In this document: positions 6,786 to 7,680 of the stretch, piece by piece
How the letters are laid out: each line of letters starts with the position of its first letter
Numbering within the stretch: position 1 is the stretch's first letter
DNA from: an uncultured cyanobacterium
GTDB lineage: Bacteria; Cyanobacteriota; Cyanobacteriia; Cyanobacteriales; Nostocaceae
NCBI GenBank assembly: GCA_963706595.1
Contig: OY970166.1
Coordinates: 832,001 to 896,000 of the forward strand
Length of the DNA stretch: 64,000 bases
Direction of reading: 5' to 3'
The notes under the pieces: generated by a model
What the model saw: only the letters and a program-made list of their open reading frames with translations
Told to the model about the DNA's origin: nothing
Databases searched by the model: none
Made by a program: the position numbers and the translations under genes

Positions 6786-6900
6786 GAAGAGGCAGGGGAG
6801 CAGGGTGCAGGGTGCAAGGGTGAGTAAGAAATTACTTTAAACTTCCGGTACTTAACAACCATTCCTCTTCTCCCCTGCGCCCTGCCCCTTTTCCTCTTCT
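6786..6900 (+). repeat. ~110-bp dispersed hairpin element, copy A
   Basis: G-rich GGGCAGG arm, core GAAATTACTTTAAACTTCCGG (6828-6848), C-rich arm; related copies at 31529, 49592 (reverse) and 58527. Confidence 0.8.
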
Positions 6901-7030
6901 TTGACCAATATTCTGGAAAAGTTAGGTGTTATATAGCAGTGTTGTTAGACTCCCGCCCGATCTACACTGGAGAAGATGATCCACAATTAAATTCCGAACG
7001 TCGTAAACCCCAATTGCCATTGCAATTTAG

Positions 7031-7500
7031 TGTGACAGCAAGAAGCCTCTCACTTAACACGATAGCGGAAGTGATGAGATGAATTGCGCGTGAATTGACG
7101 ACAGTCTCCCGACCAATGCGACAGCGAGGAAGGGAGACACGGAGGAAACGAGCAAAATATTTTAAATTTGGTATAATCGATTTGGTTGACTTCACCCATA
7201 TTGGTGTCTGATAAGCCTCTGTCCAATAGCATTACGATTATTGGTAAGCGACTCCGTTGCACAGCATAGAAGCAAGTAGGCACATCTTGATTAATACAGA
7301 TCACCTCCGGGTTTGTCCTATAGCGCGAATAAGCCAGCATCTCATCCAGGACAGTAAAATTTGTAGGGTACAAGGTAAGAAATTGCATAGTCTGCGGAGG
7401 GGCTTCTCGTGGACTTAAAACAAAGCTCAGTCAATGTCTTCATAGAAGAGTCGCTGAGAAGCCTACACTGTATGCTTGCATCAGTGTAGGAGTATGTCAC
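7031..7500 (+). mobile_element. Non-autonomous IS200/IS605-family derivative (no tnpA or tnpB)
   Basis: Left end CAAGAAGCC plus hairpin (CTCTCACTT...AAGTGATGAG); right end GAAG-CCTACACTG-tatgcttgcat-CAGTGTAGG-agtatgTCAC; removing 7031-7500 restores the DUF72 frame. Confidence 0.75.
7169..7177 (+). promoter_or_regulatory. Extended -10 element inside the IS605 derivative
   Basis: TGGTATAAT is a perfect TGnTATAAT match. Confidence 0.5.
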
Positions 7501-7655
7501 TGTGACAGCCCCTTTCATTCTGATTCGGTTTATTTCTCACCCAAATTTATCAACGAATCAGCCTTTTATGGAAGAGTGGGTGACACAAATTCAACAATGG
7601 TTACAGGCGGGAAAACGAATTTATTTCTTTGTTCATTGTCCTCTAGAAGAGCGAT

Positions 7656-7680
7656 GATGCTCCGCCCCGCCTTTGGCGAT
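7656..7680 (+). repeat. 25-bp insertion in a HIP1 site
   Basis: GCGAT[gatgctccgccccgcctttgGCGAT]CGC; removal restores GAG CGA TCG CCT (E-R-S-P). Confidence 0.75.

Follow-up and report, generated by a model that had tools for sequence, protein, structure and literature searches.

Can a mobile element that codes for no protein still supply a guide RNA to a nuclease encoded elsewhere in the genome? This question is raised by a short insert in an uncultured cyanobacterium of the Nostocaceae, within the 64,000-nt stretch of contig OY970166.1 analysed here (the window, whose numbering is used throughout). An earlier note on this DNA had described the insert as a cassette of the IS200/IS605 type that has a promoter of its own and might either express an omegaRNA-like guide or carry an undescribed structured RNA. 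The features discussed below are collected in Table 1.

Table 1. Features of the insert and its surroundings in window coordinates
Feature	Positions	Strand	Details
5′ piece of DUF72 remnant (host target)	6900-7030	+	92% identity to intact G001 gene
Transposon-adjacent motif (TAM) TTTAG	7026-7030	+	precedes 8/8 copies and the complete element
Protein-free IS605-family mini-element	7031-7500	+	470 bp
TGTG replacing normal left tip CTTAA	7031-7034	+	CTTAA in 7/7 other copies
Left-end region common to complete IS605 element	7035-7154	+	117/120 identical, G000:4057920-4057801
Left guide tetranucleotide AAGC; left DNA hairpin	7043-7046; 7047-7078	+	fold -4.9 kcal/mol
Extended -10, TGGTATAAT	7169-7177	+	TGnTAnnnT conserved before start
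Predicted non-coding RNA, leader and omegaRNA-type scaffold	7184-7500	+	317 nt
Family-specific 5′ hairpins	7223-7244, 7248-7260 (within 7184-7270)	+	93-94% of cells paired
Conserved leader domain	7279-7380	+	7295-7301/7359-7365, hairpin 7303-7312, 7313-7318/7349-7354, GUAAAA linker
Likely boxA-homologous position	7282-7293	+	within leader domain
omegaRNA-type stem 1 and pseudoknot loop	7390-7414	+	94.7% paired
Linker and stems 2/3	7415-7458	+	CUCA 7426-7429 pairs UGAG 7455-7458
Right end	7458-7500	+	GAAG 7458-7461, hairpin 7462-7490 (-9.0 kcal/mol), terminal TCAC
Predicted guide (host flank)	7501-7516	+	flanks differ among all copies
DUF72 3′ remnant, right of insert	7501-7657	+	DUF72 match 25.3 bits

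Insertion site, copies and element ends

The proposed 470-bp insert was borne out at positions 7031-7500. The accompanying claim that it splits a DUF72 gene stands in part. The insert does interrupt DUF72-derived sequence, but the gene is a 3′ remnant rather than an intact one: similarity to intact DUF72 relatives begins at window position 6900, and the single match in a profile search of the genome covers model positions 146-206 of 217. The empty site was not found by a DNA search of five genomes and was found by protein search in four of five other genomes. In the intact DUF72 relatives of G001 and G008 it reads TTTAG followed by TGT(A/G)ACAGCCCC, which places the element directly 3′ of TTTAG.

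A BLAST comparison of the region with the 5.57-Mb host genome yielded 12 matches. Full-length copies number eight, including the window copy, at 99.8-100% identity; they differ from each other by 0-1 base, their flanks are all different and every one of them follows TTTAG. The element is thus multicopy, has been spreading recently and behaves as a mobile cassette, as had been supposed. In seven of the eight copies the insertion lies 3′ of the fixed TTTAG without target duplication; these copies start with CTTAAACAGC (longer: CTTAAACAGCAAGAAGCC) immediately after the motif. The right terminus is GTATGTCAC in all eight.

The window copy is the exception at its left tip, which has been rewritten. 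TGTG in place of CTTAA, together with the adjoining ACAGC, copies the first 9 nt of the right flank, and hence the 9-bp repeat TGTGACAGC (7031-7039 and 7501-7509) occurs only in this copy. This single case likely arose when an empty allele recombined with a filled one through the ACAGC microhomology common to both. Cutting of the empty allele by TnpB would favour such an exchange, and spontaneous recombination or a tandem intermediate would leave the same left junction.

Two other features lie to the left of the insert. At 6929-6939 the window has TTATATAGCAG in place of GGGCAGAG of the intact DUF72 gene. This motif, present in 15 copies, is the terminus of several other TnpB elements of the host genome, which we take to be IS607-like, and it seems to be the trace left by a second element deleted at an AGGTGT microhomology. 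Further upstream, positions 6786-6899 form an imperfect palindromic repeat that recurs in the host genome at 63 loci, each 80 bp or longer; its Rfam matches are of miRNA type and at chance level only.

Both ends have the organization expected of substrates for a Y1 transposase. GAAGCC, reported earlier for both ends, stands at 7042-7047 and 7458-7463, each time at the foot of a hairpin, and the terminal TCAC was confirmed at 7497-7500. According to the IS608 pairing rule, AAGC fits TTAG and GAAG fits TCAC. The autonomous tnpA/tnpB element whose existence the earlier note had proposed to check is also present and has the same left end (Table 1). This complete element of 1.85 kb (G000:4057925-4056075) follows TTTAG and carries divergent tnpA and tnpB genes. 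Its TnpA (G000:4057310-4057792; Y1_Tnp, 150.7 bits) has the HIH and Y motifs and looks intact; judging by the common left end, it is likely to be the enzyme that excises and inserts the mini-element. Among 39 TnpB-type matches in the host genome, two carry the right-end type of the mini-element, namely the TnpB of the complete element (4057329-4056133) and another at 4680859-4679669, 62% identical to each other. The three acidic motifs of RuvC are retained in both, and TTTAG precedes each of the two elements.

The element itself codes for neither protein. In agreement with the initial reading, protein and DNA searches revealed no tnpA or tnpB remnant inside it: the best of its six frames scored 3.2 bits on the TnpB protein profile, and the interior aligned to no tnpB and no gene of the host genome. 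We also rejected a decayed tnpB as the source of the interior, since none of 36 5′ regions reached 0 bits against a profile of 18 tnpB 3′ ends, a score reached by 7 of 720 shuffles. One short stretch, GGCACATCT, reads as the G-T-S codons of tnpB and lies 143 nt from the end, compared with 147-153 nt in tnpB. A small protein was rejected as well: a 112-aa frame on the minus strand and a 53-aa frame on the plus strand have no Pfam family above cut-off, and most indels are frame-breaking.

A predicted non-coding RNA with an omegaRNA-type scaffold

The perfect TGnTATAAT noted earlier, TGGTATAAT, is found at 7169-7177. Chance alone would give 0.018 occurrences of such a motif over both strands of 466 bp. 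We scanned 42 homologous loci, 31 of which had a start motif recognised by pattern. In all 31, TGnTAnnnT lies 6-7 nt upstream of the conserved start, while the intervening spacer varies freely. A -10 position that is kept while the spacer changes is the usual sign of a selected extended -10 and points to a start at 7184. A sigma-70 scan detected no -35/-10 pair and no terminator. Further upstream the homologues differ, with several left-end types 199-330 nt before the core, or none recognised.

The predicted RNA extends from this start to the end of the element. Its full-length homologues (n = 36) measure 271-346 nt, and 81 of 92 indels relative to the window copy are not multiples of three (kin are counted repeatedly in this figure). 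A DNA search with window 7160-7400 covered 401 genomes of the order, two candidates being scored in each, and 14 of these genomes matched. The covariance model R1, which represents 7270-7417, matched 31 of 150 genomes of the family and 7 of 150 genomes of the phylum, all seven within the family. A short-pattern scan of contigs produced 120 matches, all due to chance except one real locus (L141). The element had no match in plasmid or phage records, none of nine viral pattern matches passed R1, and Rfam returned no match for the element, 12 homologous loci or 20 sister loci (see below). Two of 59 loci have a TnpB match in their flanks, and inspection showed each match to belong to a separate element.

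Covariation, which the earlier note had proposed to look for with a covariance model, is present. In a structure-blind alignment of 22 sequences (A1), 48 pairs were 93.8% paired and 15 of them showed two-sided changes, a result equalled by none of 500 shuffles. Two-sided changes affected 22 of 33 pairs among 42 model-aligned sequences, although that alignment leans to structure and kin inflate the count. The pairs 7316-7351 and 7300-7360 are formed in 36 of 36 sequences, with seven two-sided changes each. Pairing in A1 reaches 99.3% for core helix 7295-7301/7359-7365 and 100% for core helix 7313-7318/7349-7354, and in the first of the 5′ hairpins (7223-7244) three of six pairs have two-sided changes. 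The three pairings read directly from the window all exist (7247/7455, 7304/7400 and 7223/7244), but only the CCAATA/TATTGG hairpin is conserved (93.0%). The two long-range ones are not kept in homologues, with AGCGACTC/GAGTCGCT paired in 76.5% and CCTCCG/CGGAGG in 63.7% of cells. Another long-range pairing, between GGCAC and the 3′ end, had been seen by eye and was discarded as unsupported in the covariation scan. The folding energy of the predicted transcript is no better than that of shuffles (z -0.36), and the whole element has a z-score of -3.16.

The last ~110 nt of the RNA match the anatomy of the ISDra2 omegaRNA as described in PMC10097598: a pseudoknot that joins positions -5 to -3 to the stem 1 loop near -100, a stem 2 of the CUCA/UGAG type, a terminal hairpin and a guide taken from the 3′ flank. 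In the window copy, GGC at 7401-7403 (-100 to -98) can pair with GUC at 7496-7498 (-5 to -3), a complementarity without covariation across it. The loop, ~100 nt from the end, lies well beyond the 40-nt terminal hairpin. It reads GGGCA in 24 of 36 homologues and GGGCU in 5, the subfamily of the window copy, and is lost in 7, namely six immobile copies upstream of ycf4 and one other. The pair changed in the GGGCU subfamily is non-canonical in ISDra2 as well (PMC10097598). In 29 of 36 homologues the 3-bp core persists, among them members of subfamilies whose stem has been rewritten. Positions 7422-7469 are 89.6% identical to the tail of the tnpB gene of the complete element. At the same time, in contrast to ISDra2 (PMC10097598), the scaffold is not within a tnpB frame and does not overlap a tnpB 3′ end, as fits a stand-alone form, and the RNA has 317 nt as compared with 116 nt. 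The path from the pseudoknot to stem 2 is 22 nt long, versus 18 nt in ISDra2 and 14 nt in the complete element; this 8-nt excess over the latter means that a fit to the resident TnpBs is not assured. Both alternatives raised by the earlier note hold at the level of sequence: the predicted RNA ends in a TnpB-type scaffold, preceded by a structured domain for which we found no description.

Guides would be drawn from whichever sequence lies 3′ of the element. We compared 11 of them with the host genome and found no TAM-adjacent target longer than 9 nt. The left junction of the window copy consists of the TAM and a 9-nt match to the copy's own guide, and by folding back, the guide of this copy can pair with the end of the scaffold (UGUCA-CUG-UGACA).

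Parts of the stretch occur in 20 sequencing runs, 17 of them recorded as RNA. In eight RNA runs from eight studies, contigs cover the interior in all eight; these come from other strains, their strand and ends are unreadable and DNA may be present in the libraries. One contig is identical over 7196-7501. None covers 7035-7077 and seven of the eight begin at or after 7170, although contig ends do not mark start sites. As to possible partners, 27 of the 34 RNA-positive genomes have a related TnpB clade (at least 54% identity), as do 5 of the 20 RNA-negative ones, with at most 34 candidates scored per genome and kin not independent; seven of the 34 positive genomes thus lack the clade. Such co-occurrence is equally expected from a need for TnpA, and does not separate the two needs.

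The leader domain, its sister family and settled copies

Ahead of the scaffold stand ~200 nt that are non-coding, covary and have no similarity to tnpB. Loci that have only the 3′ module in common with the element led to a sister family that has the same linker. We built a model (R2) of the sister 5′ domain alone from 10 sequences, excluding the shared stem. In the element's own family R2 produced full-length, in-register matches at 19 of 27 loci (E 0.016-2.7) and missed eight; it aligned the window copy over 7279-7380 in register with E 1.0, and its background was 10 matches elsewhere in 90 kb. A sequence-only profile detected no similarity between the sister domain and the leader of the element. 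Because the R2 matches are in register yet weak and the sequence profile is blank, we consider homology of the two domains likely but not certain.

The sister domain is widespread: R2 detected it in 66 of the 150 genomes searched in the order and in 20 of 121 in the phylum, often in many copies. We inspected 46 sister loci, comprising a first set of 26 and 20 chosen from weaker or more distant matches, and in all 46 the domain is followed by a protein-free omegaRNA-type end. Each of the first 26 has a TCAC or TCAA end 133-224 nt downstream. Among the other 20 the end was found by pattern in 18 and is visible further on in one, and in the remaining one the contig stops inside a similar scaffold. 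None of the 46 has tnpB inside the element; in two, a TnpB match lies nearby but beyond the ends. The sister tails fall into 12 sequence groups, with best matches to four different TnpB tails of the host genome, and 3 of 9 sister leaders carry a short tnpB-derived stretch. In a fitted alignment of 36 sister sequences, two-sided changes affect 17 of 19 pairs. Around these freely covarying helices, ~25 junction nucleotides are at least 70% conserved. An ACCUU/GGGGU pseudoknot is 92% paired, with no two-sided change. Two sister elements of the host genome itself, at G000:C1:1678110-1678441 (L317, with its R2 match at 1678180) and 5140077-5140332, have a boxA-like leader, a different scaffold and a TCAA end.

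The first strand of the sister domain resembles GAACCTTGAAAA, a motif of the host rRNA leaders and spacers that is presumably boxA. The agreement is 10-12 of 12 positions in 31 of 36 sisters and 6-8 of 12 in the element's family, with 7 of 12 in the window copy. Genes of the NusB family are present in the host genome, and no Rho RNA-binding domain was found in it (94% complete). Given the poor match, the ability of this strand to pair within the leader domain and the missing Rho domain, ordinary anti-Rho antitermination is an unlikely purpose of the leader.

Some copies have ceased to move. In one genus, L040, L041, L042, L049, L141, L247 and L255 sit directly upstream of ycf4 in the same flank; they keep the promoter and leader, have lost the pseudoknot loop and were possibly domesticated as the promoter and 5′ leader of that gene. 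Their fixed guide has no target with fewer than two mismatches. L209 and L211, heavily worn, lie upstream of an S41/PDZ peptidase gene in another genus. L170 (G000:C1:4143370-4143619) is a divergent single copy (73%) with promoter and leader, without stem 1 and with no recognised left end; a contig of RNA run X1 matches it.

Proposed function, alternatives and known systems

Taken together, we favour with moderate confidence the explanation that this is a protein-free mini-element, moved by TnpA, whose own promoter gives a 317-nt RNA that is loaded into TnpB in trans and uses the flanking DNA as its guide. The TnpA of the complete element would move it. The promoter would produce a leader-scaffold-guide RNA, which a TnpB encoded elsewhere would bind and trim, so that the 3′ third is loaded. 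TnpB would then cut empty insertion sites on sister chromosomes; with the filled copy as template, repair would retain the element. For complete elements, TnpB cutting of empty alleles and repair that restores the element are described in PMC10055086, and protein-free omegaRNA carriers are reported to work in trans (PMC10691335, PMC10055086). The 5′ two thirds of the RNA would stand in for the tnpB message that normally carries the omegaRNA. The leader domain may be a biogenesis device, through which an untranslated transcript is made, folds and survives until TnpB binds. In the sister families the leader probably recruits NusB/S10 through boxA; in the element described here boxA would be worn and the fold retained.

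Alternatively, the leader could be the selected cargo, such as a self-cleaving RNA, a ligand sensor or a stabiliser of 5′ ends in cis, with the omegaRNA tail serving mostly as the vehicle of transposition. The conserved junctions of the sister domain between covarying helices have this appearance, as do the ycf4-upstream copies, which retain promoter and leader and not the pseudoknot loop, and the worn copies upstream of the peptidase gene. We nevertheless judge it unlikely, because the domain is tied to an omegaRNA-type end at every sister locus inspected and has no Rfam ribozyme or riboswitch match even at lax E-values.

A slightly less likely possibility is that the RNA acts as a decoy or regulator of TnpB, whose cutting would be blocked by the leader or the lengthened stem 1 module for the protection of host or element. 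Scaffold spacing does depart from that of resident elements in all mobile copies, in one ortholog, cleavage is inhibited by a 5′ region of the tnpB mRNA (PMC10278001), and the window copy has the TAM and self-match at its own left junction. However, the pseudoknot core is retained, as is the terminal TCAC, the guides are as variable as those of ordinary elements, and the 9-nt match falls short of the 12 nt used by ISDra2 (PMC10278001).

We regard as improbable a plain MITE, with an inert interior conserved merely through recent spread. Near-identity of copies within the genome, the transcript z-score and a patchy distribution (31 of 150 family genomes) would all suit it, yet it leaves unexplained the two-sided changes between divergent subfamilies, a promoter retained though spacer and upstream DNA vary, and left ends of several different types and lengths. 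Least probable of all is service to another TnpB-derived protein, e.g. a nuclease-dead repressor, to which the long scaffold, altered linker and absence of the close TnpB clade from 7 of 34 positive genomes might point: no partner gene lies next to the RNA (the flanks of 57 of 59 loci lack a TnpB match), and neither the 11 guides nor the ycf4 guide reveal a corresponding target.

The element stands close to known systems. By its sequence it is a PATE-like IS605 element, and it resembles a stand-alone omegaRNA, both already described. With the PATE-like elements of PMC10055086 it has in common the lack of a protein gene, IS605 ends, probable dependence on TnpA and TnpB in trans and a right-end omegaRNA; it differs in its own conserved promoter and a covarying 5′ region of ~200 nt without tnpB similarity, a kind of domain that the accessible text of that source does not describe. 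Stand-alone omegaRNAs (PMC10691335) are likewise mobile, effector-less guide RNAs with effector loci in the genome, and their function in trans is shown there. In the present case loading is predicted, and across cyanobacteria the same sort of leader precedes scaffolds that belong to several TnpB types. IStrons (10.1101/2023.11.20.567912) also combine an IS605-type element with a large structured RNA besides the omegaRNA, but here there is no Rfam match to a group I intron (E<=10), the element ends in C (TCAC) rather than G, and the predicted RNA has its start within the element, downstream of a promoter. Compared with the boxA leaders of rRNA operons and CRISPR arrays (PMC13753749), to whose motif the sister domains begin with a 10-12/12 match, the strand in the element's family reaches 6-8/12 and is part of a larger fold, in a host in which no Rho was found.

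Several other RNAs were considered and set aside. The omegaRNA of IscB/IsrB (HEARO) has no Rfam match here, and the variable flank is 3′, whereas the HEARO guide is 5′. A TldR guide RNA is at odds with the RuvC motifs of both candidate TnpBs, and no fixed genomic target was found. The ncRNA nsn009 and the DGR1 RNA (PMC5853447 and PMC3610870) do not fit, judging by the descriptions in these sources alone. The GCACATCTTGA motif is absent from the sRNA table of PMC4734099. Length by itself is not new, since processed omegaRNAs on record span 79-466 nt (PMC10278001).

The covarying leader domain is absent from Rfam 15 and from the literature searched, a search with subscription papers and bioRxiv supplements outside its scope. 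Within these bounds, what is new is that a leader domain with covariation occurs solely on carriers that lack a protein gene and is linked there to several kinds of scaffold. TnpB normally excises its guide from its own mRNA. Cyanobacteria may possess dedicated guide-RNA genes, in which a portable ~100-nt domain has repeatedly been joined to omegaRNA scaffolds of different TnpB clades and allows hand-over of the guide in trans, via host elongation factors or through a catalytic or protective fold of its own, much like a CRISPR leader, and was later domesticated as a promoter-leader (e.g. at ycf4). We offer this broader scheme tentatively and with more doubt than confidence. The role of stand-alone omegaRNAs has been called unknown (PMC10691335). 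A domain restricted to protein-free guide carriers gives a direct handle on how such RNAs are produced and loaded. If the leader improves guide expression or loading, it would be a natural part for TnpB tools. It is also a widespread structured RNA without an Rfam match, and a candidate ribozyme or protein-binding motif.

A few loci depart from the common form of the element. In L038 (1790-3227) the 3′ stem of the homologue is interrupted by what is probably a group II intron: the intervening sequence starts with GTGCG, and a reverse transcriptase gene comes after it. Internal deletions in L007, L174, L213 and L208 have left the ends and the 3′ part of the RNA. Finally, L018 and L181 (in G026 and G025) represent a third protein-free type, which has the same ends, a promoter, a short unrelated leader and a scaffold that is not lengthened.
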